Source: a virus. Taken from it: a DNA stretch of 56,298 bases. The DNA is taken from the IMG/VR virus record IMGVR_UViG_3300021254_000002; one strand, given 5' to 3'. The translations under genes and the position numbers were made by a program. This document shows positions 1,320-52,090 of the stretch, piece by piece. The notes under the pieces are model-generated. The model had not been told where the DNA came from, searched no databases, and saw only the letters and a program-made list of their open reading frames with translations. Each line of letters begins with the position of its first letter. Position 1 is the first letter of the stretch.

Positions 1320-1460
1320 TTTTGAATTTGAGTTTTAAGTGAATGAAAATTCGTTGGCGAAAATACATAAAAAATTTCTTAATGGTGCTTATTAAACACT
1401 GCTATTTTTGTTAAATCGCGTTAATTTTAAATATTTCAGAGTGGGATTTTTCTCAAAAAG

Positions 1461-1492
1461 TTTGCAAATAACAGAAATATTCCATAATTTTG
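1461..1492 (+). promoter_or_regulatory. Bacteroidota sigma-A type promoter
   Basis: TTTG (1461-1464), 20-nt spacer, TAATTTTG (1485-1492). It sits about 40 nt upstream of the ATG at 1531. Confidence 0.6.
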
Positions 1493-1530
1493 CAAACAGA
1501 AAAGTAATTCATCAAAAAATTCAAAGCAAT

Positions 1531-1899
1531 ATGTTACAGTCAGAGTTTACACAGCGAACAAAGATTAATGTCACAGCAGACATGTTCGCACAGATTCATG
1601 AAGACTACATGAAGTCGAATCTCGACAAAGACGCTTTCTGCGCACAGTGGAAGCGTAAGAATTCAGAGTCAGCAACGCAGGATCTTGTCGATCAGATCCA
1701 GTCGCTTCGTCAGCAGCTTGCAGAAGAAAAGCAGAAGCGTGAAGCAGAGCGCGAGCACGCACAGAAAGAACTTCTGGACGCGCTTCACAAGCGTTCAGCG
1801 TTGGAGAAAGAATTGATCCGTATCTTCGACATCGAAGGCGACTACAAAGCTATTCACGCTATGGAACAGCGGATCATGAACAACTACTATCAGAAGTAA
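1531..1899 (+). CDS. Hypothetical protein (coiled-coil)
   Basis: ORF 1408..1899 trimmed to the internal Met that is preceded by an exact TCAAAGCAAT leader. Confidence 0.6.
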   Translation: MLQSEFTQRTKINVTADMFAQIHEDYMKSNLDKDAFCAQWKRKNSESATQDLVDQIQSLRQQLAEEKQKREAEREHAQKELLDALHKRSALEKELIRIFDIEGDYKAIHAMEQRIMNNYYQK

Positions 1900-1925
1900 T
1901 TATTAACGTCTAAAATCAAAGCAAT

Positions 1926-2135
1926 ATGAATCCAGAGTATTTCAACGAAGCAGTAGCTATCATCAGTCAGTCACTTTCATGCGAAGTGAAGTTCAACACA
2001 CCAGTCAACGACAACTACTCGAACACTTATCCGATCTTGATCATCGAGTCGAACGGAAAAGTGATCGACGATCTGCACAAAGCAGGATTCTCTATGAGTA
2101 TGACAAAGAAAGGTCTCGCAGTAGATAAGTTTTAG
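1926..2135 (+). CDS. Hypothetical protein, 69 aa
   Basis: ORF preceded by ATCAAAGCAAT directly before the ATG. Confidence 0.55.
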   Translation: MNPEYFNEAVAIISQSLSCEVKFNTPVNDNYSNTYPILIIESNGKVIDDLHKAGFSMSMTKKGLAVDKF

Positions 2136-2190
2136 TATTAACAAGAGCGTCTGGATCTCGCGTCTGGACGCGCACAATCATCAAAGCAAT

Positions 2191-2595
2191 ATGGAAAAGC
2201 AGTATCAAATCACGCTCACAGAGCAACAGTACAAGTCAGTGATCGCTATTCTCATGGCGATCAACAGTAACAGACGCTTCCAGACTGGATCGAATCTTCG
2301 CGAGTCTCACGTCTGCAACATCAACGACTTCGACATCAAAACTATGGACTACGTCACGGATTTCGACAACTGGACGGAGTCAGACGATCCAGTATATGTG
2401 AAAGTAGGATCAGAGATCGAGATCGACGGACGTACATACGTCTGCAAAGAGTACGTTACAGATCCAGACGCTGACAACGAGTGCGAAGGTTGCGCGTTCG
2501 CTGATCTTCGTTTCTGTCCGAATCTTGCTTGCTCTGACGAAGATCGCAAAGACAAGAAAAGTGTTCTGTTCGTAGAGAAGGGGGGTGCAGTATGA
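2191..2595 (+). CDS. Hypothetical protein, 134 aa, Cys-rich C-terminus
   Basis: ORF preceded by ATCAAAGCAAT. Its stop overlaps the next start (ATGA). Confidence 0.6.
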   Translation: MEKQYQITLTEQQYKSVIAILMAINSNRRFQTGSNLRESHVCNINDFDIKTMDYVTDFDNWTESDDPVYVKVGSEIEIDGRTYVCKEYVTDPDADNECEGCAFADLRFCPNLACSDEDRKDKKSVLFVEKGGAV

Positions 2596-4115
2596 AGTTG
2601 TTCAGTCAGAATCCAGACTTCTATCCCACACCAGAGCGCGTGATTGCGCAGATGCTCATGGGGGAAGACATCATCGGGAAACGCGTCTTAGAGCCAAGTG
2701 CAGGAAGCGGAAACATAGTCCGTTGGTTGAAGCGCAACGGAGCGCAGGACGTGATCGCATGCGAGAAAGATCCGCACTTGCGCAAGCTTCTGGACGGACA
2801 GTGCAGACTGATCGCAGAAGACTTCCTGCAAGTGTCAGCAGACGAAGTCAGTCACGTTGACTACATCGTCATGAATCCACCTTTCAGCAGAGGTGCGGAA
2901 CACATCTTGCACGCTTACGAGATCGCGCCAGACAACTGTACGATCATCGCTCTCTGCAACACAAGCAATCTATCTGGACGCAGTTACAGCAGAACGAACA
3001 ACGTTCTTGCAGAGACAGTGAAGCTTCACGGATCTCGCGAAGATCTCGGCTGCTGCTTCGAAGATGACGCAGAACGAACGACACGCGTAGAAGTGTCGCT
3101 GCTGAAACTCTACAAGCAAGGATCTGGAGACAGCGAGTTCGCTGACTATTTCTTCTCTGCATACGACGAAGACGATCTCTCTGGATCTGGAAAAGAAGGT
3201 CTCATGTCCTACAACTTCGTTCGTGACATCGTCAATCGCTACGTGTCCGCTGTGAAGCTGTTTGACAGTGTTCTCGCTGCTTCTAAGGAGATCAACGATC
3301 TCGCGGACTTCTACGACTTCAAGACTGTCACTGATCCGACAACTGGCGAGAGTAAGCAGGAACGCGTCAGCTATGGATCTGTGCCAGTCCGCTTTGGTGC
3401 GATCGTAGTCAAGGATGACGAACGACTTGCAAGCGAAGGAACAGCGATCACACATGATCAGTACAAGAAAGCGTTGCAGAAGCACTACTGGAAGATCATC
3501 TTCTCAAAGCTTCACATGGAAAAGTACGCTACTGCACAGCTACGCGATCAGATCAATAAGTTCGTAGAACAGCAGACGAACGTTCCGTTCACGATGAAGA
3601 ATATTTATCGCGTCATCGACATCGTGATCCAGACGAACGGACAGCGCATGCAGCGAGCACTGACGGAAGCTTTCGACACGATCTGTTCATTCAGTGCAGA
3701 GAATTCCACTGCGGGCGAGACATGGAAGACGAACGCTAACTACATGGTAAATCGTAAGTTCATCGTTCCCTACATCGTGTCCGTCGGTTGGAACTGTACG
3801 TTCGAAGTCGATTACAGCGACTACGTTCATCGGAAATGCGAAATGATCGAAGATGTAGTCAAAGCACTCTGCACGATCACTGGACGCGACTACGACACGA
3901 TCGGATCACTCCGACGCTTCATCTATAACAATCGCGACAAGATCAAGTTCGGACAGTGGTTCGAATGGGGATTCTTCCGCTGCAAGGGATTCAAGAAGGG
4001 AACTATGCACTTCGAGTTCATCGATGAAGATGTCTGGTACAAGTTCAACTACGAGTGCGCGAAGCTTCGCGGTTGGAATCTTCCAAAGAAGACACAGAAA
4101 GCACGTCGCAGATGA
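2592..4115 (+). CDS. Orphan N6-adenine-type DNA methyltransferase with a large C-terminal domain of unknown function
   Basis: SAM-binding motif I LEPSAGSGN and catalytic motif IV NPPF in the first 130 aa. No restriction partner is visible. Confidence 0.8.
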   Translation: MKLFSQNPDFYPTPERVIAQMLMGEDIIGKRVLEPSAGSGNIVRWLKRNGAQDVIACEKDPHLRKLLDGQCRLIAEDFLQVSADEVSHVDYIVMNPPFSRGAEHILHAYEIAPDNCTIIALCNTSNLSGRSYSRTNNVLAETVKLHGSREDLGCCFEDDAERTTRVEVSLLKLYKQGSGDSEFADYFFSAYDEDDLSGSGKEGLMSYNFVRDIVNRYVSAVKLFDSVLAASKEINDLADFYDFKTVTDPTTGESKQERVSYGSVPVRFGAIVVKDDERLASEGTAITHDQYKKALQKHYWKIIFSKLHMEKYATAQLRDQINKFVEQQTNVPFTMKNIYRVIDIVIQTNGQRMQRALTEAFDTICSFSAENSTAGETWKTNANYMVNRKFIVPYIVSVGWNCTFEVDYSDYVHRKCEMIEDVVKALCTITGRDYDTIGSLRRFIYNNRDKIKFGQWFEWGFFRCKGFKKGTMHFEFIDEDVWYKFNYECAKLRGWNLPKKTQKARRR

Positions 4116-4196
4116 TCCGTTTCGGATCGTCTGCCTGCTTCTTTTGTAAAAGAACTGGAAAATCTTGCATCAAAAACGAAAATTTTTCAAGAAAAG

Positions 4197-4228
4197 TTTG
4201 CATATTTCGGTTATTTGCAATATATTTG
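4197..4228 (+). promoter_or_regulatory. Bacteroidota sigma-A type promoter
   Basis: TTTG (4197-4200), 20-nt spacer, TATATTTG (4221-4228). Confidence 0.6.
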
Positions 4229-4257
4229 CAGCAAGTTTAACAAACAATCAAAGCAAT

Positions 4258-5160
4258 ATGAGTACAAAGTCTTTCACTATCACAGAGATCTTAGAAGATC
4301 GTCAGCGCGTCCACGATGCCGCTTCTACAGAAGTCAAGAAGCAGATGTGCGCTAAGTACGGAATCACGTCGAACAAGACAAAGGAGGTCGAGAAAGCTAT
4401 TCTCGCGATCGGTCTTGAACTCCACAAGCAGAACACTACGTTCACAGTGACGGAAGACGTTCGCGTCTTCGATCTGTACTGGAATCGTCCAGAGTCAGCA
4501 CAGAAGATCCGCGAAGCATTCGCAGACGAACGCGAAGCCTTCATTCGCTTCTATCTGGATCGCTTGCAGAAACAGTACGATCTGAATCCGCTTCGCGGAC
4601 GTTGGATCTTGCGTCCTTTGAACTTTATCAAGCAGATCTTGAACGAGCGCACAACGGACAACACAGAGCGCGACGCGCTCGCACTCGCGCTTGACGTACA
4701 GATGAAGGATTTTCACGATCGCTTCATCAAAGCACATCTGGACTATGCAAACTGGAAGTTCGATCACATGTTCCAGAAGTACGCAGAGATCAAGTCTACG
4801 CGTGACATCATCTTGAAGCTGAATGTTTCGGATCAGAAGGAAGTCGAGCGTCTGCACAAGATGATCTCGACATTCCGCGTCGAGTCCAGAGACTTCGATA
4901 AGGACTACTACATCGAGCGCGTTCGCAGAGACTTCGAAGCAGAGTATCTTCGCTGTCTTCTGATGATCGCTGACAGAGTGCTGACAGCTAAGATGAACAC
5001 GAAGCAGATCAGCGTCCAGAACGTCAGTAGCAGCGACGCGAAAGCATTCGACATCTACGTCAAAGACGATCAGCGCACGATGCACGCACGTTCGATCTGG
5101 TGCGCAGAGTACAGCGAGATCGTGACACCTCACTGGCGATTCATCATCACGAACGCATAA
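4258..5160 (+). CDS. Hypothetical protein, 300 aa
   Basis: ORF 4165..5160 trimmed to the Met preceded by ATCAAAGCAAT. The promoter lies just upstream. Confidence 0.65.
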   Translation: MSTKSFTITEILEDRQRVHDAASTEVKKQMCAKYGITSNKTKEVEKAILAIGLELHKQNTTFTVTEDVRVFDLYWNRPESAQKIREAFADEREAFIRFYLDRLQKQYDLNPLRGRWILRPLNFIKQILNERTTDNTERDALALALDVQMKDFHDRFIKAHLDYANWKFDHMFQKYAEIKSTRDIILKLNVSDQKEVERLHKMISTFRVESRDFDKDYYIERVRRDFEAEYLRCLLMIADRVLTAKMNTKQISVQNVSSSDAKAFDIYVKDDQRTMHARSIWCAEYSEIVTPHWRFIITNA

Positions 5161-5234
5161 GTTATCATCAGTCAATAAACAACGCGTCAGGCGCAAGGGA
5201 AACAGCGTCTGACGCACTTAAAACAATATACAGC

Positions 5235-5555
5235 ATGGCAACACTACAAGCACTTATCGAAGACTTCAACGCAAGCGTCGAAGCAGTAAAGAACGAAAGA
5301 CAGAAGCAGCGAAAGATCCTGCAAGAAGTAACGGATCGCTTCTGTGATCACAAAGTAGGGCAGAAAGCGACGATCGAACGGAACGGACGTACTGTCACGA
5401 TCGTCTGCAAGCATGTCAAGACAGACATCTTCAACGGAAAAGCATTGTTCTCTTACGACTTCAAGCAGTTGAAGAAAGACGGAACACTCTCGCGGAATGA
5501 CATCTATGTCTACAATCAAGAAATCAACTGGATCGACGAATACATGCAAGTATGA
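5235..5555 (+). CDS. Hypothetical protein, 106 aa
   Basis: Internal Met of ORF 5100..5555, downstream of the hairpin at 5184-5215. Confidence 0.55.
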   Translation: MATLQALIEDFNASVEAVKNERQKQRKILQEVTDRFCDHKVGQKATIERNGRTVTIVCKHVKTDIFNGKALFSYDFKQLKKDGTLSRNDIYVYNQEINWIDEYMQV

Positions 5556-5764
5556 GCACAATAAAGATTCAACACACTCACGTCTTTGAGTTTCGCGAGG
5601 GTGGCGACTGCGACAAATGTGACATGCGCGACTACTGTCTCGAAGCATTCGATCAAGAATGTGACGAAGGAACTCTGGGATATTACGAAGAAGTAGATGA
5701 AGAAATAAATCAGATAGAAGATGAAACAGAGACAACAGAAAGTCTATCATGTGGAACTCGCTGA
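5552..5764 (+). CDS. Hypothetical acidic Cys-containing protein, 70 aa
   Basis: ATGA overlap with the upstream gene. Confidence 0.45.
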   Translation: MSTIKIQHTHVFEFREGGDCDKCDMRDYCLEAFDQECDEGTLGYYEEVDEEINQIEDETETTESLSCGTR

Positions 5765-5984
5765 TCCGCGAGGAAACGAGCCGAAGCACAGCTATTTCGG
5801 ATCGCAAGCTGCGATCTTCCAGACGTTCGGAAATGAGCGTCTGGGGATCTCATATCGATCACTCTCGAACAACTACAACTTGCAGGAACGAGAATATTCG
5901 AATCGGCACTGCACAATTCGCATGGGATATTTGCAAGTGTCAAGAAAAAACCGTAACTTTGCACCCACAATCAAAGCAATATGA
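5721..5984 (+). CDS. Hypothetical protein, 87 aa
   Basis: ORF whose stop overlaps the ARH start. It contains the next promoter, so coding status is uncertain. Confidence 0.35.
   Translation: MKQRQQKVYHVELADPRGNEPKHSYFGSQAAIFQTFGNERLGISYRSLSNNYNLQEREYSNRHCTIRMGYLQVSRKNRNFAPTIKAI
5930..5961 (+). promoter_or_regulatory. Bacteroidota sigma-A type promoter for the ARH gene
   Basis: TTTG (5930-5933), 20-nt spacer, TAACTTTG (5954-5961), then the leader ATCAAAGCAAT and ATG at 5981. Confidence 0.6.
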
Positions 5985-6829
5985 GTATGATGACAACAGT
6001 AAACAAGAACAAGCATCTTTTCGGTGCTATCATAGGCGACATCGTAGGCAGCGTCTATGAGTTCGGCAGACAGAAGTCCTACGACTTCGATTTCTTCTCG
6101 TATGGATGCAACATCACTGATGACACAATCCTTACATGCGCGACAGCAGAAGCGATCCTTAGAAACGGAAACATCGTTGACACGCAGGACTTCGCGAACG
6201 AGTACTACGACTTTGCGAAAGAGTTTCCACACCCTATGGGCGGCTATGGCGCAGGATTCTCTACATGGGTCTACGACGGAACGATGCGCCCTTACAACTC
6301 ACTCGGCAACGGTGCTCCGATGCGTGTCTCTCCCTGCGCGTATTTCAGTGCGTACATCAATCGCTGTCTGGAAGTCGCTACGATGTCAGCGTCAGCGACA
6401 CACAATCACTGGCAGGCGATCCGCGCTGTGCAGTGCGTAACGTTCGCGATCTACGAACTGCGTCACGGAACGTCAGTCGAAGATCTGATACAAAAAATCT
6501 ATCAGCAGTACGAGTACGGAATGATAAGACTCTGCACGAAAGATCAGAAAGCATACGATCTCTTTCAGCAGAAGTACGAATACACAGAGCACAGTGAAAA
6601 GACAGTGATCGGTGCTCTCATTTGCGCTCTCTCTGCGACTTCATTCGAAGACGCGATCAGACGCGCTGTCTCTCTCGGTGGCGACGCAGACACACTCGCT
6701 GCGATCGCAGGATCAATCGCAGAAGCACGCTTCGAGATTCCAGACGCTATGATCGACGTAGCGAAGCAGAAACTCCCGAAGAAGCTGCTTGACATTGTGA
6801 CGGAATTCAACGAAACAATCGCATTATGA
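5981..6829 (+). CDS. ADP-ribosylglycohydrolase (ARH/DraG family)
   Basis: N-terminal GAIIGDIVGSVYEF, DDTILT, and C-terminal GGDADTLAAIAGSIAEA, all typical of the ARH fold. Confidence 0.85.
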   Translation: MSMMTTVNKNKHLFGAIIGDIVGSVYEFGRQKSYDFDFFSYGCNITDDTILTCATAEAILRNGNIVDTQDFANEYYDFAKEFPHPMGGYGAGFSTWVYDGTMRPYNSLGNGAPMRVSPCAYFSAYINRCLEVATMSASATHNHWQAIRAVQCVTFAIYELRHGTSVEDLIQKIYQQYEYGMIRLCTKDQKAYDLFQQKYEYTEHSEKTVIGALICALSATSFEDAIRRAVSLGGDADTLAAIAGSIAEARFEIPDAMIDVAKQKLPKKLLDIVTEFNETIAL

Positions 6830-7065
6830 TCACAGTACAAGAAAAGCAGAAGAAAGCGCAGGAAGTAGCAAGTTCATACGGCTACGACTACGTGAAGTTC
6901 GTCAAGAACATCGGCAACGTGTCCGTTTATCGCGGAATGACTCATGAAGAAAAGATGTTAGGACTTCCGCTGTTCATAGAGATCGATGACAACGGCAACG
7001 TCATCGAACAGCAGAGTCTTGAATATATGGAACTAATAGAAGACGAAGAAAATGAAGAAAAGTGA
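6826..7065 (+). CDS. Hypothetical protein, 79 aa
   Basis: ORF overlapping the ARH stop (ATGA). Confidence 0.5.
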   Translation: MITVQEKQKKAQEVASSYGYDYVKFVKNIGNVSVYRGMTHEEKMLGLPLFIEIDDNGNVIEQQSLEYMELIEDEENEEK

Positions 7066-7363
7066 TATTATTGCACTGTGTCACTACTACAAAGGAGAGA
7101 CACAGAATCCGTTCGAGAATAAGGATCAGAACAAGACATTGCTCTGGATCTACGAACAAATCTGGGTTGAAGACATGCAGAACGACAACTGTACGTTCAC
7201 GGATCTTCTGACAGACTATCTGGACGCAGGACTGCGAGACTTCTGCAAGACGGATGACACTCCGATCACGCTGAAAGCTTTGCTGTTCAATCGTTTCTGC
7301 AAGATGCAGGATCGCACAGATCCAGAAGCTTTCAAAGAGTTCTATCAGAAGTACTACTCATAG
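7052..7363 (+). CDS. Hypothetical protein, 103 aa
   Basis: Last ORF of the plus-strand island, followed by a terminator. Confidence 0.55.
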   Translation: MKKSDIIALCHYYKGETQNPFENKDQNKTLLWIYEQIWVEDMQNDNCTFTDLLTDYLDAGLRDFCKTDDTPITLKALLFNRFCKMQDRTDPEAFKEFYQKYYS

Positions 7364-7370
7364 AGACAAA

Positions 7371-7408
7371 GAAGCGGAAAGTTCGATTGCTTTCCGCTTC
7401 TTTTTTTT
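7371..7408. terminator. Rho-independent terminator between convergent operons
   Basis: 11-bp stem GAAGCGGAAAG / CTTTCCGCTTC (7371-7381 and 7390-7400) followed by T8 (7401-7408). Confidence 0.8.
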
Positions 7409-7412
7409 GTGA

Positions 7413-10400
7413 TCAATCGAAGATTGCGTGCCAACCACCGTCATTCTCGTACTTGCTGATCGTGCGAGCGTCTTGTTCGATGATTTCGAGATCGATGTAC
7501 CACTTGCTGTCAGACGGATTCCATTCAGCTTTGATGATTCTGAACTTCGTTCCGCGTTGCAGCAGGACTTCATTCTCATTCAGTCTCGTAGGCTTCGAAA
7601 CTCCGTCCCACGACTTCTTGTATTGTCCGTATTCACTGAACGGCTCACAGTACATCATGCGAGTTCCCTTCGGTGCGTAGATATTCAGACAGACTGGCTT
7701 ATATCCGAACGACGTTCGCTTACAAGATCCGCAAGACACGAACGAGTCATCAGTTCCGATCATTCCGACAAGCTTACTGGGATCGCCCTTGAACGAATCC
7801 AGATTGATGCCGAAGCGATAGTCCATGAATGCAGAGATCTCGTCTCGCTTGATCCAGACATCTTGATCTACGCTGCTGCGTGCAAGCGCGTTTGTGATAG
7901 CTTCAACGTCCTTTTCGACAGTAGAGAGTGCTTTTCTGGACGGATAGTAGCGATAGCCTTTGATTCCGCGAAGCGTCTCTGTGCAGTACGCAGATCCTTC
8001 CGTGTAGTTCCAGATTCCGTGTTTCTCCGTCGCTGACATTGTCTTCCACTGTTCGGCAGTGAAGTTGAAGAAGTAGTCGAGTGCTTCGTTCGCGTCGATA
8101 TGCCAGAGCGCGAGATCCTTGCGTGCTGCGCTGTAAACGTCATCAAGATTCTCTCCGAGTTTAGTCCAGATCGCGCGTGTCTTCGTAACGTCCTTTGCAT
8201 CGATCGCGTTTTTGAGTTCGACGTATAGCTGCTGCTGTGTCTTCGTAAGCTTGAGCTTACCTCCGAGTGCTTCTGCCATGCGTTTCGCTTGCAGACGCGT
8301 TGACATGTCGAGATATTCGTCATCAGTGAGCGTTCTGTTAAGCACGGACTGTTCGACCTTCATGACAGCGTTCGCTGCTGATTTCTTCGCTGCTGTGCGT
8401 GCCGCACGCTGTTCAAGCTGCTGCTTGATCTTCTTCGCTTCGTCAAGATACGTCTGTGCTTGCAGCTTGTTTCCAGTGTGTACTGCATCGTTGTACTTCG
8501 CGAGAGCGTCAACGAACTTCGAAGACTTAGTCTTGTAGCCGACGATCTGGACGTACTCTGTATCAAGCTTGTTCCAGAAGATCTTGTCCTTGACTTCCTG
8601 CAACTTGTTCGTATATGCGATCTGCGAGATCTTCCATGTCGGATATTGCTTCGCGCCTGCTTTGTACTTCGACGGATCAGCGACAAACTTGATTTCGAAT
8701 TCAAGCTTCTTGACTTGTTCGTCGAGTGACAGAGTCTTCCACGCGTCAAGCTTGACTTGAATAGCTTGATAAGCACCACGCAGATCTCCGATAGTGAACT
8801 GACTGTGCCAGTACTTCGCGTCTGGAATGAGATCTTCCAGTTTCGCAAGATCTCTGTTGATCGATGCGATCTTCTTCGCGAGATCCTTGACTGCGATCTG
8901 CTGCTTGACGTAGTTCTGCGAATCGACAAGTGCTTGCAGACGCTTGATCTCTCCTTGCAGTTCTGGATAGTCCTGCGCTACGTTCAGCACGTTCTTTGAA
9001 GTCTTCTCGATCAGAGCGTAGCGTGCGCGTCTCTCTGCGAGTCGTTGCAGGATCGCTGCTTCGTCTCTGTTCGCATGACGGATCTGACGCGCTCTCTCGA
9101 TAGGATCGACGTAGTTCTCTGCTTCCTTGACAAGCGGACTGACGCGTTGAACGTTGATCAGCTTGTTATTGATGCGGAAGTACTGATAGCCGTACTTAGG
9201 CGACACGTCCTTGCTGTACTTCTCGAACTCTTTTAGACTGTTGAAGATTTCGTTCGTCTGCGGGTCGTAGAAGTAGATCTTGCCTTTCTCCTTGACCATG
9301 TTGAACGTGTGACCAGACTTGCCGCCCTTCCAACGACATTCGATCTGGAATACTCCGTCTTCGCCAGAAGCGACATCGTTCCAGATCTCCGATGCTTTCT
9401 TTGCACTGCGCCAGTGAGTGACAAGCTTTCCGTCCTGCGTCTTCCATGCTTCGCGATAGTTGTGACACAGATACTCGAAGTCCTTTCCTTTGAACGCTTT
9501 CGCTTCGATGTTGAATCCCATGCGTCGCAGTTCGTACACTGGCGCACACGTCTGACAGTTGATCGTGTAGGGTTTGTCGCGCTTTTCATTCCACTTAGGA
9601 TTGAGCGACAGCTTGCGTCCAGTAGCTTTCTCCAAGTACTTTCCGTTTGGATCGTAGACGTATTTCTTCTTGTAGTGCGGATTGACGCGCATAGTGTCAG
9701 CCTGCTCATGAGTCATCCTGCGTCCTTTCTTCACTCCGACAGCTTTCTCAAACTCGCGTAAGTTCGCTTTCTGTTCTGCTGTGAATCCTTCCCAGACGAT
9801 TGCATCCCACTTCTGCTGTGTCTGGACTCCTTGCATTGCTCTCTTGAACGTCAGAGCGATGTTCTGCGTGTTTCCAGACTGGATCGCTGACTGCAAGCTG
9901 TCTATACGTGTCTGCAAAGCAGGACTGATCTCGATGTCGGACTGCTTGATCGCGTTCTGGACTTGCTGCATCTTGCGCTCGTTCCAACGCTGCTGAATAG
10001 CTGCTGCGTCTCTGGACGCGTGACGCTCCTTCGCGATCTGCCAGACATCTTTCGGCTTGTTCTGGATCACAAGTCCTTTGCTGATGTCTCCGTCAACGTA
10101 GTTCTGTGCGATGAAGTACGGCTTCACTGCTGCTGCGTTGATGCGATCCGTGTTCGCTGCGATCCATTTCTTGAAGTTGTCTGGAACGTCCTTGATTTCC
10201 TGCGCCTGCATGTCAACAGTACGCGGATCGTTACCGTTTAGGATCGCTTTCTGCATAGCGATGAAGTCATTCTCCTTTGCGAGTATAGGAACGACGTAGC
10301 AGAGACAGTGCGGATGCCAACCAGTGAACTTGAAGCCTTTCGGGTACTTTCCTGCCAGTAAGTCACAGATGTCTCCCTTCGGCATTCTCACTTCATGCTG

Positions 10401-30184: not shown

Positions 30185-30245
30185 GGTGCAAAGATAGAAG
30201 ATATTCTGTAAACACCAAAATAAATCACAGAAAATCTTCTGCACC
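30185..30245. promoter_or_regulatory. Imperfect 61-bp palindrome (candidate operator) overlapping the leftward promoter
   Basis: Nested inverted repeats: GGTGCA/TGCACC (30185-30190 and 30240-30245), AGAAGAT/ATCTTCT (30196-30202 and 30234-30240), TTCTGT/ACAGAA (30204-30209 and 30227-30232). Confidence 0.55.
30189..30219 (-). promoter_or_regulatory. Leftward Bacteroidota-type promoter for the Cro-like/early operon
   Basis: On the minus strand: TTTG (30219-30216), 19-nt spacer, TATCTTTG (30196-30189). Confidence 0.6.
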
Positions 30246-47671: not shown

Positions 47672-50600
47672 TTATGAGTTTTGTTCGACGATTCGTTTGA
47701 TCTTGCTTAGATCGCTTTCTATTCGCGGAAGACTGTTCGAATTCCGTGATATGTTTTCAAGATAAGTCTGACAGTTGAAGATAAACTCGTTCGTTGCTTC
47801 CAGAAGCGACATTGTGAGCGACTGATTCTGTGCGATCACTGGAATCTGATCGATCACGAAGTCTGCAAGACGCGTTGTCTGCATAAGCTGTGCTGTCTCA
47901 CGTCCGAGTAGTGCAGTGCCAGTTTCCTCGCTGACTGTCTCGTAGCCACCGCGTGAAGCTTCCTGACTGTTGGAACTGCTGCTGTCATATCCAGTGACGC
48001 GTGCGAGTTCGTCACGGATGCGTATTGCTTCCTTGACATATCCTTCGTATTCCGTCTGCAACGCAGTGCGCTCCGAGTCAGAGAGTGTTCCGTCAGACAT
48101 GTTAGTAGCGAACTTCTCGTACCAAGATTTCAGCTTTTCAGAGTACAGTTTTCCGATCTCGTTCGACAGCATAGCCTGCATAAACATCTTCGAGACATCT
48201 TTCGAGAAGTTCTCTGTCTTCGATTCCATATCCATAAGCATGCTGACGAAGTTGTCGTAGATCGTGTCGAAAGTCGTTGCTGTCTGCTGTTCGCGTATAG
48301 CGTCCTGCATTTCCTCAATACGCTTCGATCCTTCTATGATCTTGTTCAAGTAGTCGCGGACATCACCGTCAAGCTTCGCCCAGAAAGTAGGTGCAGTTTC
48401 CTGCAACTTCTTCAACTGTTCGAGAGAGAGATCAAAAAGTCCAGTCATACGTCCGTCTGCAACTTCCTCATAGCTGAATCCTGCTTCTCTCGCTGCTTTG
48501 CGTAGTTCCTGCCAACCTTCGTATGACATGCCGTTGCGGATGCGCACACCGATAGAGTGAGAGCCCATAGACGCTCCAGAGTTCAGACGCTCTTTTCCGA
48601 GTGTGCGATATGCTTCGATCTCCTTGTCTATCAGAGAAAGTGCTTCTTTTCCGACAGCTTGAATCTCTGATCCGTAAGAGATCTTCAAGTATTCAGTCTT
48701 ACGATCGATAAGAATATCCCAGACATCGATCAGTCCGTTGTATTCCTCGACCATTGCATTGTACTGCGAATAGTCTGCGCCAAAGAGTCCGTCAAGCGCG
48801 TTTACGACTTGTCCGATACCTTGAACGGCTGACATTGCACCGCCTACGATGTCGCCAGACATCATCTGTCCGACTCCCGCGCCTGCTGTTGCGATACCTC
48901 CGAGTCCGTCCATGATTCCTTGAAGCTTTGAGTCATCGAAGCCGAAGATCGTTCCGAGACTTGAACTGAAATCTTTCAGAGACGGAAGGAAAGAGTTTAT
49001 ATCGCCTGCAAGCGATGTGATCGCGTTGCCGTAGTCGCCTACGCTCTTAGCTTTCTTGAACTGATCGAAAGTCTCATTCAGATTCGATTTGAACGACTGG
49101 AAAGCGGACTTGTCTTTCAGAACGTTTTTCAGTTCGCGGATGCGCTCTGTGACTTCCTTGATAGAGATCGATCCGTCTTGAATCTTCTTGATTTCGTCAT
49201 CAGTGAAGCCGAGAGATTTTAGATCAGCTTGCGAGATCACTTTGTCGGACGTGCTTAGAGCGTTTCCAGAAGCGTCCATGATCTTGCCGTTCTTTCCTTC
49301 CATGAAGTTGATCAGCGTCTCGTACTTCTTGATGATCTTGTCGATCTCCGAGACAGACTTTCTGGAAGTGTCAGCGAACAGATCTGCCATAGACTGTGCA
49401 GCGAGTCCGAACTTCTGTTCAAGCTGTGCAAGACGTTCGTTCTGCTGTTCCTCTGCCATGCGTGCTGCTGCTTCGTCGCCAATAGCGCGTGCAGTATTGA
49501 TCTTTTCCGTGAATTCCTCTGTGATCGCAAGTCGCTGCTGCTGATAAGTGCCGTACTGCTGCAAGTACTCGTTCCAAGACTTGCGTATTTGCTCGTTGGC
49601 TTCTCTCTGTTGCGCGATCTCCGTCTGTGCGATCAAGTTATCATACGCGGACGTATCGACGCTTCCTGCGTCGCCTTTGAACGTCTGCTTGCGATACTTC
49701 TTGTCCTTTGCTTTCTTCAAGTCTTCCTGCGCGTCGAAGATCTCCTTCTGCGCCTGCAAAGTAGCGTTGATGAAGTCCTGCTTCTGCTTTTTCAGAGACT
49801 CGATCTGCAACTTATTGTTCAGTTCACGCTGTCTGCGCTCGCGCTCGCCTGCGTCTTCAAGTCCGTTGATGACAGCTTGTTCAGTAGCGTTCTGCATATC
49901 CAGAAGCTTCTGCTTGCGATCTTGCTCGCCTTGAAGCATAAGCTGATCGATGCGTTCCTGCGTAGAACGGATCTGTTCGTATCGCTGTGCTGCTTCGTTT
50001 GCAGCCTGCTTCGCGTCGTTCGCAGCCTTAGTCTTCTGCTGTTGTGCTTTGCGCTGCTGTGCTTCGATGTCGATTCCGACGGACTTCAATCCAGACTTCG
50101 CTTCGTCAAGACGCTTGTTTGCAGCCTGCCACTCGACTTCCGACTTCTTGCGTGCAGCTTCCTCTGCTGCTACGGCTGCGTTGTACTCTGTCATAGCGTC
50201 TTTCTGCGCTTGCTCATGAGACTTCGCAGTCATGCCTTGCAGACGCTTAGACTCGCGCTCTGCATCGTCGTAGGCTTTCTTTGCGCTGTTATAGTCGAAG
50301 ATCAGTTGCAGTGGGATCTGATACCACGGATTTTCGCGAACTTTCTCTTGCTCCGACTGCATTTCCGCTTCAAGCTTGTCGAAGACTGCTTTCGCGTCTG
50401 CGAGAGTCTTCGATGCGTCAGAGATCTTCACGTCAAGCGGACGGTTTTCCTTCTCTGCCTGCTGACGTGCTTTCTCATATTCCGCAAGCTGCTTCTTGTA
50501 CTCTGCGAGTGCTGACTTAGCTTTCGCGATCTGTGACGCGAATTGAGAGACAGCTATTTGAGATCCTTGTGTAGCTGCTGTTGCAGCAGAATTCATTGCA

Positions 50601-52090
50601 GATTCCAGACCTTTGATCTTTCCTTCTGTGTCGCTGATATTCTTCTGCAACATTGCGTACTTCGTATCGTCAAGCTGCTTGTTCAGTTCCTTCGCAGCGT
50701 TCGCAGCGTCCAGTGTCGCAAGTTCCTGCTGTGAGTACTTGTCCGTCAGTGTAGGCGCAAGCGACTGCAACTCTCTGTACGCTTCTGCCTGCTGTACGGC
50801 TGTTGCGTTAGAGTCCTGCACAGTCTTGATCAGAGACTCGATCTTCTGTCTGCGTTCGTCAAGTAGCTGCTGCTGACGTTCAAGCTGATCGTTCGCTGCT
50901 TTGACTCCCTTTTCCTGCGCTGATTCAGCAGTAGCGAGTTTGTAGACAGCGTAGACCATGCCGACGATCGCTGCTGTTGCGAGCACGTAAGGATTCGTGA
51001 GTGCTACTCCGAGTCCAGACATAGACGCTTTCAGACGTGTCTGTGCTGCTGCAAGCAGTGTAGACGTAGCGGCTGCGCGTGCTTGCTCGATAGATAGCGT
51101 ATGTCCTGCCTTTGCAGCGAGAGCCATTTGAAGTGCTGCTTCCGCTTCGACAGCAGAGTGCGCTGCCTGCACAGCAGTTTGCAGCATGATCGCAGCTTTG
51201 TATGATCCGTAAGCTGCTACGAGCGTCATGAGGATCTTTCCGATCGTCTCGTAGTTCTCGACAAGCGTAGCGACACCAGAGATTCCTGCGCTGATCATTC
51301 CCTGCGTGTCCTTGCCGATAGAGTTGAACATTGAGTCGATTGCGTCTTCCAGATTCGAAAGCTGTCCTGCGATAGTCTGTGACTGCTTTTCCATGAGTCC
51401 GTAGAACTTGCCGCCCTCGTTAGTCATAGACTCGATAGCTTTCTTCACTTCCTCTGCGCCTACTTTGCCCGCAGTGACAAGTTCCCCGACTTGATCCTTT
51501 GCGACTCCGAACTGCTTCGCGAGTTCGTCAGCAAGCGGAATTCCTCGACCCATGAACTGACGAAGATCCTGCGTGAACATTCTGCCCTGCGTCATTGTAG
51601 TTCCGTACAGCATGACAAGATCTCCAAGCGGGATCGACAGTCCAGATGCTATGTTTCCAAGACGGATCAGCATGTCGTTGACTTCGTTCGCTGCTGTTCC
51701 GTATGCAAGTAGCTGCTTCGCTCCGTCTGCGACTCCCTTCAAGTCGAAAGGTGTCGTTGCAGCAGTCTTCGTCAACTGCTTCATCAGAGCGTCAGCTTCC
51801 TTTGCGCTGCCAAGCATGACTTCGAAAGCGACTTCAAGCTTCTGGAACTCTCCGCGCACTTTCATGATCTGCGTGCCGAATTCCTTCAAAGTCGCTGCTA
51901 TGCCGATAGCTGCGAAAGCCTTGCCGATATTCTTCGCAGCAGAGTTGAACGAGTTGTCTACGACTTCGCCCTGCTGCTGTGCTTCCTGCCCGATCTCATG
52001 AAAGATGTTCACGACATCTTGCTTGTCACGATTCATCTGCTTGTGATCAAGCGTGACCGCGTATGATACTGATCCGTTATCGTTGTTCAT
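47672..52090 (-). CDS. Tail tape measure protein (1472 aa)
   Basis: Very long A/Q/K/E-rich coiled-coil protein after the chaperone pair. Confidence 0.9.
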   Translation of the reverse strand: MNNDNGSVSYAVTLDHKQMNRDKQDVVNIFHEIGQEAQQQGEVVDNSFNSAAKNIGKAFAAIGIAATLKEFGTQIMKVRGEFQKLEVAFEVMLGSAKEADALMKQLTKTAATTPFDLKGVADGAKQLLAYGTAANEVNDMLIRLGNIASGLSIPLGDLVMLYGTTMTQGRMFTQDLRQFMGRGIPLADELAKQFGVAKDQVGELVTAGKVGAEEVKKAIESMTNEGGKFYGLMEKQSQTIAGQLSNLEDAIDSMFNSIGKDTQGMISAGISGVATLVENYETIGKILMTLVAAYGSYKAAIMLQTAVQAAHSAVEAEAALQMALAAKAGHTLSIEQARAAATSTLLAAAQTRLKASMSGLGVALTNPYVLATAAIVGMVYAVYKLATAESAQEKGVKAANDQLERQQQLLDERRQKIESLIKTVQDSNATAVQQAEAYRELQSLAPTLTDKYSQQELATLDAANAAKELNKQLDDTKYAMLQKNISDTEGKIKGLESAMNSAATAATQGSQIAVSQFASQIAKAKSALAEYKKQLAEYEKARQQAEKENRPLDVKISDASKTLADAKAVFDKLEAEMQSEQEKVRENPWYQIPLQLIFDYNSAKKAYDDAERESKRLQGMTAKSHEQAQKDAMTEYNAAVAAEEAARKKSEVEWQAANKRLDEAKSGLKSVGIDIEAQQRKAQQQKTKAANDAKQAANEAAQRYEQIRSTQERIDQLMLQGEQDRKQKLLDMQNATEQAVINGLEDAGERERRQRELNNKLQIESLKKQKQDFINATLQAQKEIFDAQEDLKKAKDKKYRKQTFKGDAGSVDTSAYDNLIAQTEIAQQREANEQIRKSWNEYLQQYGTYQQQRLAITEEFTEKINTARAIGDEAAARMAEEQQNERLAQLEQKFGLAAQSMADLFADTSRKSVSEIDKIIKKYETLINFMEGKNGKIMDASGNALSTSDKVISQADLKSLGFTDDEIKKIQDGSISIKEVTERIRELKNVLKDKSAFQSFKSNLNETFDQFKKAKSVGDYGNAITSLAGDINSFLPSLKDFSSSLGTIFGFDDSKLQGIMDGLGGIATAGAGVGQMMSGDIVGGAMSAVQGIGQVVNALDGLFGADYSQYNAMVEEYNGLIDVWDILIDRKTEYLKISYGSEIQAVGKEALSLIDKEIEAYRTLGKERLNSGASMGSHSIGVRIRNGMSYEGWQELRKAAREAGFSYEEVADGRMTGLFDLSLEQLKKLQETAPTFWAKLDGDVRDYLNKIIEGSKRIEEMQDAIREQQTATTFDTIYDNFVSMLMDMESKTENFSKDVSKMFMQAMLSNEIGKLYSEKLKSWYEKFATNMSDGTLSDSERTALQTEYEGYVKEAIRIRDELARVTGYDSSSSNSQEASRGGYETVSEETGTALLGRETAQLMQTTRLADFVIDQIPVIAQNQSLTMSLLEATNEFIFNCQTYLENISRNSNSLPRIESDLSKIKRIVEQNS

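Follow-up and report, generated by a model that had tools for sequence, protein, structure and literature searches.

The IMG/VR record IMGVR_UViG_3300021254_000002, hereafter the window (the whole stretch of DNA analysed, 56,298 nt), is a complete temperate siphovirus-like genome of a Bacteroidales phage. The locus described here consists of a gene for a MuF-family head protein ending in an ADP-ribosyltransferase (ART) domain and, running towards it on the opposite strand, a series of small genes that includes one for an ADP-ribosylglycohydrolase (ARH). A preliminary description of the window had recognized a two-gene system, a convergent pair of the ARH and the capsid-gene ART some 600 bp apart. 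The pair is real, with an intact ARH and an intact R-S-ExE ART, but the stop-to-stop distance is 584 bp, the interval taken for a gap holds two open reading frames (ORFs), one of them a homolog of Bsi, the immunity protein of the Bacteroides toxin Bxa (see below), and the system has at least four components. The features of the locus, in the order of the + strand, are as follows:

5721-5984 (+), ORF87, PHROG 10608
5930-5961 (+), Bacteroides-type promoter motif TTTG-N20-TAACTTTG, inside ORF87, ending 20 nt before the ARH ATG
5981-6829 (+), ARH, 282 aa, Pfam ADP_ribosyl_GH (E 4.8e-35) and PHROG 6572 (E 4.6e-51)
6826-7065 (+), ORF79, alpha-beta4-alpha in an AlphaFold2 (AF2) model (predicted local distance difference test score, pLDDT, 84)
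7052-7363 (+), ORF103, Bsi homolog, PHROG 19606, abutting the MuF stop
7368-7403, hairpin with a 15-bp stem and a T-run between the two convergent stops (terminator scan and sequence)
7413-11165 (-), MuF-family head protein and putative polymorphic toxin, 1250 aa, PHROG 16625 'Bxa ADP-ribosyl transferase' (E 4.7e-183)
7494-8057 (-), ART domain of the MuF protein (aa 1037-1224), Pfam ADPrib_exo_Tox (E 7.5e-14)
9255-9563 (-), Gln_amidase domain (papain-fold toxin 1, Tox-PL1-type) of the MuF protein (aa 535-637), Pfam PF15644 (E 3.2e-11)
11184-12653 (-), portal, same strand as the MuF gene
12668-14131 (-), large terminase (TerL), same strand as the MuF gene, giving the gene order TerL-portal-MuF

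The start of the ARH gene overlaps the ORF87 stop and the ORF79 start overlaps the ARH stop, each in an ATGA, and the ARH gene thus lies within a tightly packed, translationally coupled gene run on the + strand. The hairpin behind ORF103 is probably the terminator of this run and possibly acts in both directions. The Pfam values for the ARH and the ART come from the profile searches that the preliminary description had recommended, and both assignments were borne out. The ARH retains E27, T46-D47-D48 and D235/D237/T238, with the TDD and GGDADT metal motifs as in DraG; its database relatives begin at M3, which gives 280 aa, and as a single-protein query of viral contigs it brought back only 99%-identical copies.

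The MuF protein, which also matches several MuF and head-morphogenesis PHROGs, is composed of i) an N-terminal MuF part (aa 1-~400), ii) an insertion with the Gln_amidase domain (~400-658), iii) a Bxa-like middle domain (~644-930) and iv) the C-terminal ART. The catalytic residues of the ART (R1107, S1144 and E1197-x-E1199) are intact, alignment with C3larvin puts S1144 at the STS position, and R1107, E1197 and E1199 are nearly invariant across 19 diverse homologs. The Gln_amidase domain (GLN), overlooked in the preliminary description, matches PF15644 with 44.7 bits (cutoff 24.1) and has catalytic-type residues C537, H619 and D634. The Tox-PL1 type of PF15644 reportedly goes back to Zhang et al. 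in 2012. Two architectures were found among 120 MuF homologs: a short class of ~830-940 aa, Bxa included, with the MuF N-terminus, the middle domain and the ART, and a long class of ~1170-1300 aa, the window protein included, with the same parts and a ~245-aa Gln_amidase insertion between the N-terminus and the middle domain. The motifs NCQT, SGHT and YDPQ of the inserted domain are invariant in 15 long-class homologs at 45-74% identity.

Bxa, a MuF-ART of 869 aa, is encoded by a prophage of Bacteroides stercoris (Alexei et al., J Biol Chem 2024, PMC11699363). It kills E. coli through its ART activity, the mutant E820A being harmless, and the residue it ADP-ribosylates is arginine; BAH, the product of an adjacent ARH gene, strips the Arg-ADP-ribose and rescues the cells, which BAH E15A fails to do; Bsi, a small non-enzymatic protein, binds the active site of Bxa and blocks it, protection being lost in K89E and E92K; and BACSTE_RS09440 gives no rescue from Bxa toxicity (PMC11699363). 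That the toxin-immunity pairing co-occurs with BAH and Bsi-like genes was already on record. We recovered the 869-aa protein with its contigs as P0187 (source name 'ADP-ribosyltransferase [Bacteroidaceae]'). In its locus TerL, the portal gene, three small ORFs and Bxa follow one another, and on the opposite strand, convergent, lie a 107-aa ORF, a variable 102-aa ORF (absent in one contig, L009), a 254-aa ARH starting MLGAIIGDIVGSRFE15F, and an 82-aa ORF. These neighbours were taken as BAH and Bsi because of the 869-aa length of the toxin, the Glu at position 15 of the ARH and the K-Y-x-E in the 107-aa ORF.

When the proteins of the window were compared with those of the Bxa locus by BLASTP, all four genes found counterparts: the ARH with BAH (38% identity, E 4e-58), ORF103 with the 107-aa Bsi (42%, E 2e-26), ORF87 with the BACSTE_RS09440-like 82-aa ORF upstream of BAH (40%, E 4e-13), and the MuF protein with Bxa in three parts, namely aa 1-398 with the N-terminus (41%, E 5e-94), aa 644-927 with the middle domain (27%, E 2e-20) and aa 974-1236 with the ART (47%, E 1e-78). 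Residue by residue, E818/E820 of Bxa correspond to E1197/E1199, E15 of BAH to E27, and the K, Y and E positions of Bsi to K84, M85 and D87 of ORF103. As judged from sequence, the window locus is a divergent, syntenic member of the published Bxa/BAH/Bsi system, and the idea behind it was published in 2024. The two share the MuF N-terminus, the middle domain and a C-terminal R-S-ExE ART with its catalytic Glu kept, and both are found in temperate Bacteroidales phages, where convergent RS09440-like, ARH and Bsi-like ORFs follow the TerL and portal genes. They differ in that i) the window toxin has 1250 aa, its greater length being due to the ~245-aa insertion with the Gln_amidase domain, which Bxa lacks, ii) an extra gene, ORF79, stands between the ARH and the Bsi homolog, and iii) a promoter motif precedes the ARH gene, whereas BAH has none. 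The same cassette, in its short-class form, is present in the cultured Bacteroides phage Versailles (L173, ON453897.1, host B. caecimuris; 2641-6380), in which an 869-aa Bxa-like gene annotated 'hypothetical protein' faces a convergent 107-aa ORF and an annotated ADP-ribosylglycohydrolase; this phage is a tractable cultured relative for testing delivery. At the DNA level no close relative was found among deposited phages, megablast of 5500-11200 against 50,697 phage records giving zero matches.

The distribution of these genes was surveyed in 80 viral-contig loci (from a GLN-region alignment, 237 hits), 80 genomic loci (from a MuF alignment, 393 hits, nearly all of them in Bacteroidales) and the contigs of selected homologs. 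All ORFs were scored with purpose-built hidden Markov models (HMMs), the ART calls being checked against Pfam and a second HMM, and the count took in 109 non-redundant loci that differ in their toxin C-termini and extend 2.5 kb or more downstream:

GLN C-terminal, no ART (n = 41): ARH 0, Bsi family 0, ORF79/ADJ 41, ORF87 family 0
GLN internal with ART (n = 10): ARH 8, Bsi family 8, ORF79/ADJ 10, ORF87 family 9
GLN internal, no ART (n = 3): ARH 0, Bsi family 0, ORF79/ADJ 1, ORF87 family 2
No GLN, with ART (n = 33): ARH 31, Bsi family 19, ORF79/ADJ 0, ORF87 family 32
Neither GLN nor ART (n = 22): ARH 0, Bsi family 3, ORF79/ADJ 0, ORF87 family 14

An ARH gene thus stands beside 39 of the 43 MuF loci with a C-terminal ART and beside none of the 66 without (Fisher p = 2e-25), an association that the preliminary description had named as a check. 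All 53 ARH genes found converge with the MuF gene and lie 226-2218 nt away from the MuF stop, and the 43 members of the Bsi family found are without exception convergent and abut that stop; convergent placement, which had been called unusual for an immunity gene, is therefore the rule in this family, and an exceptional orientation is ruled out. Among the ART loci, L146 and L147 (contigs of Prevotella/Bacteroides metagenome-assembled genomes; ~10510-11300) lack an ARH and have a MuF-ART gene with two Bsi-family paralogs in tandem; an ARH is also missing from L091 and L093, which have a divergent ART with an unrelated neighbour of 72 aa.

The Gln_amidase domain is internal in the window protein and is the C-terminal domain in 41 non-redundant MuF proteins. 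At the viral loci with a C-terminal GLN, a convergent ORF of ~75-100 aa comes next in 69 of 70 cases, and we infer that these pairs are the 'MuF glutamine deaminase plus small ORF' of the Bxa paper (PMC11699363). ORF79 has homologs in all 10 loci with an internal GLN and an ART, also in L091 (divergent ART, no ARH) and in L092, a long-class locus without ART; none was found in the 55 GLN-less loci. A word-indexed homolog search with ORF79 found just 6 close relatives. In hhalign comparison, the ORF79 family aligned with the partner ORFs of the MuF-GLN-only toxins at a probability of 93% (E 3e-7, 61/79 columns), the control Bsi and ORF87 families scoring 0.1-0.3%, and the ORF79/ADJ superfamily as a whole occurs in 52 of 54 GLN loci vs 0 of 55 others (p = 3e-29, kinship ignored). 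ORF79 tracks the domain across loci and is related by profile to the partners of the MuF-GLN-only toxins, from which we conclude that the internal GLN domain most likely has its cognate partner, and probably its immunity protein, in ORF79; the domain itself is probably a second toxin. This stacked second module (GLN and ORF79), which we did not find described in the literature examined, would be the sole addition to the known system. In addition, the middle of Gln_amidase-ended MuF proteins of 907-940 aa (e.g. L020, 7162-9918 (+)) partially matches ADPrib_exo_Tox, aa 403-517 aligning with the N-terminal half of the profile; this could reflect a remnant or a helical region that is shared.

Polymorphic toxins commonly have a releasing peptidase in front of the toxin domain, and the Gln_amidase domain could accordingly be a papain-like self-processing peptidase that frees the ART, ORF79 being a chaperone or an unrelated small phage protein. 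The domain does stay constant while the C-terminus varies, and the matches of its AF2 model (pLDDT 74) in a Foldseek search of the PDB, none at E <= 0.001 and the best at E 0.08, include the papain-like toxin 9l5u and USP deubiquitinases, i.e. weak fold matches to papain-like proteases and deubiquitinases. However, the same domain occupies the terminal 'toxin position' in the 41 proteins mentioned above, every one of which has a small convergent ORF as its partner; ORF79 is a member of the superfamily of these partners and is kept whenever the domain is internal; a protease acting in cis would need no dedicated, co-varying partner; and Bxa-type proteins work without a Gln_amidase domain. We give a peptidase role a low but not negligible probability.

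How the toxin end of the locus evolves is seen from the near-identical phage L090. Its DNA is 97-99% identical to that of the window over the ARH gene and the 5' two-thirds of the MuF gene, and 21-55% identical over 7250-8750, a stretch that takes in the ART, some of the middle domain and the second half of the Bsi gene. Among the proteins, identity is 99.3% for the ARH, 79% for ORF79, 61% for the Bsi homolog and ~30% for the ART, and it is 95-98% in the N-terminal, insertion and GLN parts of the MuF protein. In L090 the ART-plus-Bsi cassette has been exchanged and the ARH kept, which is a polymorphic-toxin signature: a constant N-terminus, a C-terminal toxin swapped with its immunity gene and a temperate phage are the features by which MuF polymorphic toxins are defined (Jamet et al. 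2017). The pattern fits an enzymatic antidote that serves for any Arg-ART product and a binding antidote forced to co-vary with the toxin. A second small hypervariable spot between the two phages lies at 5450-5750 (13-47% DNA identity), around ORF70 (5552-5764), with near-identical surroundings.

The -33/-7 promoter consensus of Bacteroides is well established. The motif at 5930-5961 fits it, so that this much of the preliminary claim of a host-type promoter for the ARH gene stands; the ARH gene is also coupled to its neighbours in the + strand run. Four sites of the motif are present in the window vs 0.34 expected, at 1461, 4197 and 5930 (+) and at 30189 (-), three of them in an accessory block on the + strand (1408-7363) that faces the packaging genes, which suggests autonomous, moron-like transcription of this block. 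Among 39 distinct regions that precede ARH genes in relatives, 6 contain the full motif (background 0.004 per 120 nt) and 12 the -7 box (background 0.04 per 120 nt), and the motif is conserved in the close clade. The motif is thus real and enriched, and is a candidate promoter. ORF87, in which it lies, belongs to a family also found in 14 of the 22 related loci with neither ART nor GLN; a toxin-specific immunity role was rejected as improbable on this ground, and for the same reason ORF87 is unlikely to be the orphan immunity gene on which the 2024 paper speculated.

Taken together, homology, synteny, conserved catalytic residues, co-occurrence and cassette swapping make it very probable that the locus encodes a Bxa-type MuF polymorphic toxin with a producer-protecting antidote cassette in a temperate Bacteroidales siphovirus. 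The head-associated MuF protein, putatively packaged or delivered, would carry two effectors, a C-terminal arginine-type ART and an internal papain-fold domain of the Gln-deamidase type, and three antidote genes on the opposite strand would be transcribed towards the toxin gene. Of their predicted products, the ARH would strip ADP-ribose from ART-modified proteins as a generic antidote, ORF103 would bind and block the active site of the ART as a toxin-specific one, and ORF79 would neutralise the Gln-deamidase domain. The cassette would protect the cell that makes the toxin, whether lysogen or virion-assembling, and may be transcribed apart from the late genes, from the Bacteroides-type promoter before the ARH gene. 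By analogy with Bxa, BAH and Bsi, the ART would be toxic and specific for arginine, and the ARH and ORF103 would each rescue from it. The proposal of the preliminary description that the ARH guards the producing or lysogenic cell from the phage's own ART agrees with what was shown for the homologous Bxa and BAH, to which the window is syntenic with the catalytic residues kept.

Several points weigh against this reading. The window locus is known from its sequence alone, and its identities to the characterised proteins are just 38-47%. In ORF103 the E92 of Bsi is replaced by Asp and Y90 by Met. The co-occurrence counts given above ignore phylogeny; the ARH is missing from four ART loci (L091, L093, L146/147 and L171) and is therefore not obligatory, and two GLN loci (L106 and L115) have no detectable partner. 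The promoter motif sits within coding sequence and was not found upstream of BAH in the Bxa locus. The role suggested for the GLN domain is drawn from the Pfam match and the conserved Cys/His/Asp; the structure search gave no significant match, and the GLN-region profile found nothing meaningful among PDB sequences. Finally, ORF79 has no Pfam, PHROG or PDB relative, and a Foldseek search of the PDB with its model gave no match at E <= 0.001.

A different use of the same enzymes can be considered. The capsid would carry the MuF-ART together with the GLN domain and inject it along with the DNA, as happens with Alt of T4, so as to reprogram the new host, and the ARH, expressed from its own promoter either early from the incoming genome or constitutively in lysogens, would turn the marks off; the ARH might also shield lysogens from toxins injected by superinfecting relatives, self-protection during assembly being secondary. 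MuF proteins are head components, and injection of MuF-fused effectors has been proposed (PMC5576092, PMC5512222, PMC9503650). The promoter motif directly before the ARH gene, conserved in the close clade, and an ARH 99% identical where the ART has been swapped would suit such a generic eraser. On the other side, neither our data nor the Bxa papers point to packaging or injection of this protein, and Bxa is reported to be released from lysogens and to act on epithelial cells (PMC11699363). Since this use and the immunity model invoke one and the same chemistry, sequence cannot tell them apart; we think this use improbable. A further proposal goes a step beyond it: the MuF protein would be a virion effector with two warheads, one of the Gln-deamidase type and one an Arg-ART, delivered together with the DNA, and a modular three-part off-switch, made up of the ARH as generic eraser, the Bsi homolog as blocker of the ART and ORF79 as blocker of the GLN domain, would time their action after infection and make lysogens immune to the toxins of superinfecting relatives, the ART-plus-Bsi cassette being freely swappable because the ARH is generic. 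To this we likewise attach a low probability.

ARH and macro-type erasers do occur in phages independently of ARTs and the ARH gene of the window is preceded by its own promoter motif, but a counter-defence enzyme that erases ADP-ribosylation by the host or a competitor, placed beside the ART by accident, is scarcely credible and was rejected on co-occurrence, the ARH being found at 39/43 ART-MuF genes vs 0/66 ART-less ones in otherwise similar phages and never without the phage's own ART. In addition, BAH directly reverses the marks made by Bxa (PMC11699363), and the PADLOC defence models matched none of the five locus proteins. The suggestion in the preliminary description that the ARH may erase host defensive ADP-ribosylation is thus abandoned in favour of the producer-protecting cassette.

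Further genome features were identified as follows, and no tRNA genes were found in the window:

14244-14783, TerS
32098-33261, integrase, which indicates that the phage is temperate
47672-52090, tape measure
54981-56087, major head protein

Two further genes were noted in the surroundings of the locus. Directly upstream of TerS (14813-15907 (-)) lies a gene for a 364-aa protein (PHROG 11143) with ABC-ATPase-like and acetyltransferase-like parts, whose L090 homolog has faint nSTAND3/ABC_tran and weak acetyltransferase Pfam matches. Another protein, of 507 aa (PHROG 32703), is encoded at 2592-4115 (+) in the block that carries the immunity genes; it begins with a DNA-methyltransferase-like region and ends in DUF4942, and a DNA methylase is likewise present in this block of the Bxa and Versailles loci.

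The ART/ARH pairing of toxin and immunity in Bacteroidales prophages was shown in 2024, and the window opens no new question in this respect. What the survey adds is that the immunity cassette appears to be modular, in that each toxin domain brings a neighbour of its own (an ARH in the case of the ART, a member of the ORF79 superfamily in that of the Gln_amidase domain) and the Bsi slot goes with the particular C-terminus, and that one natural lineage seems to stack two toxin domains with three antidote genes. An enzymatic antidote that stays constant while toxin and binding immunity are swapped may explain how such toxins diversify safely.

Several known systems can be compared with the locus. 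Tre1/Tri1 of the Serratia type VI secretion system and DraT/DraG likewise pair an arginine-ART with a PF03747 ARH that removes the mark, and the PDB sequence matches of the window ARH include DraG (E 1e-9) and Tri1 (E 7e-6), but these systems are neither phage-borne nor MuF-linked. Tri1 also blocks Tre1 by binding, whereas BAH failed to co-purify with Bxa (PMC11699363). Direct inhibition of this kind goes through an N-terminal extension of the ARH, and the window ARH has only ~12 residues before its catalytic core. Phage T4 is not known to have an ARH or an immunity cassette of this sort. Its Alt protein and the effectors of the 'polyvalent protein' type (Iyer et al. 2017, PMC5512222) join an ART and further effector domains in one virion-associated polypeptide, and in this they resemble the MuF protein, which is putatively packaged and injected. 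The same logic of a MuF toxin with one enzymatic antidote that reverses its product and one binding immunity protein may be recognized in the MuF-(p)ppApp synthetase Apk2 with the hydrolase Aph1 and the binding immunity protein Tis1 (PMC10083569, cited in PMC11699363), a likeness of logic; the chemistry there is alarmone synthesis and hydrolysis and the hosts are Bacillota. Lastly, the MuF-glutamine deaminase toxins (PMC11699363, Fig. 5) share with the window the Gln_amidase Cys/His/Asp and a convergent partner ORF of the ORF79 superfamily, although these partners align with ORF79 at 15% identity in hhalign, too low for direct detection; in them the domain is C-terminal and the sole toxin, whereas in the window it is internal and followed by the middle domain and the ART.

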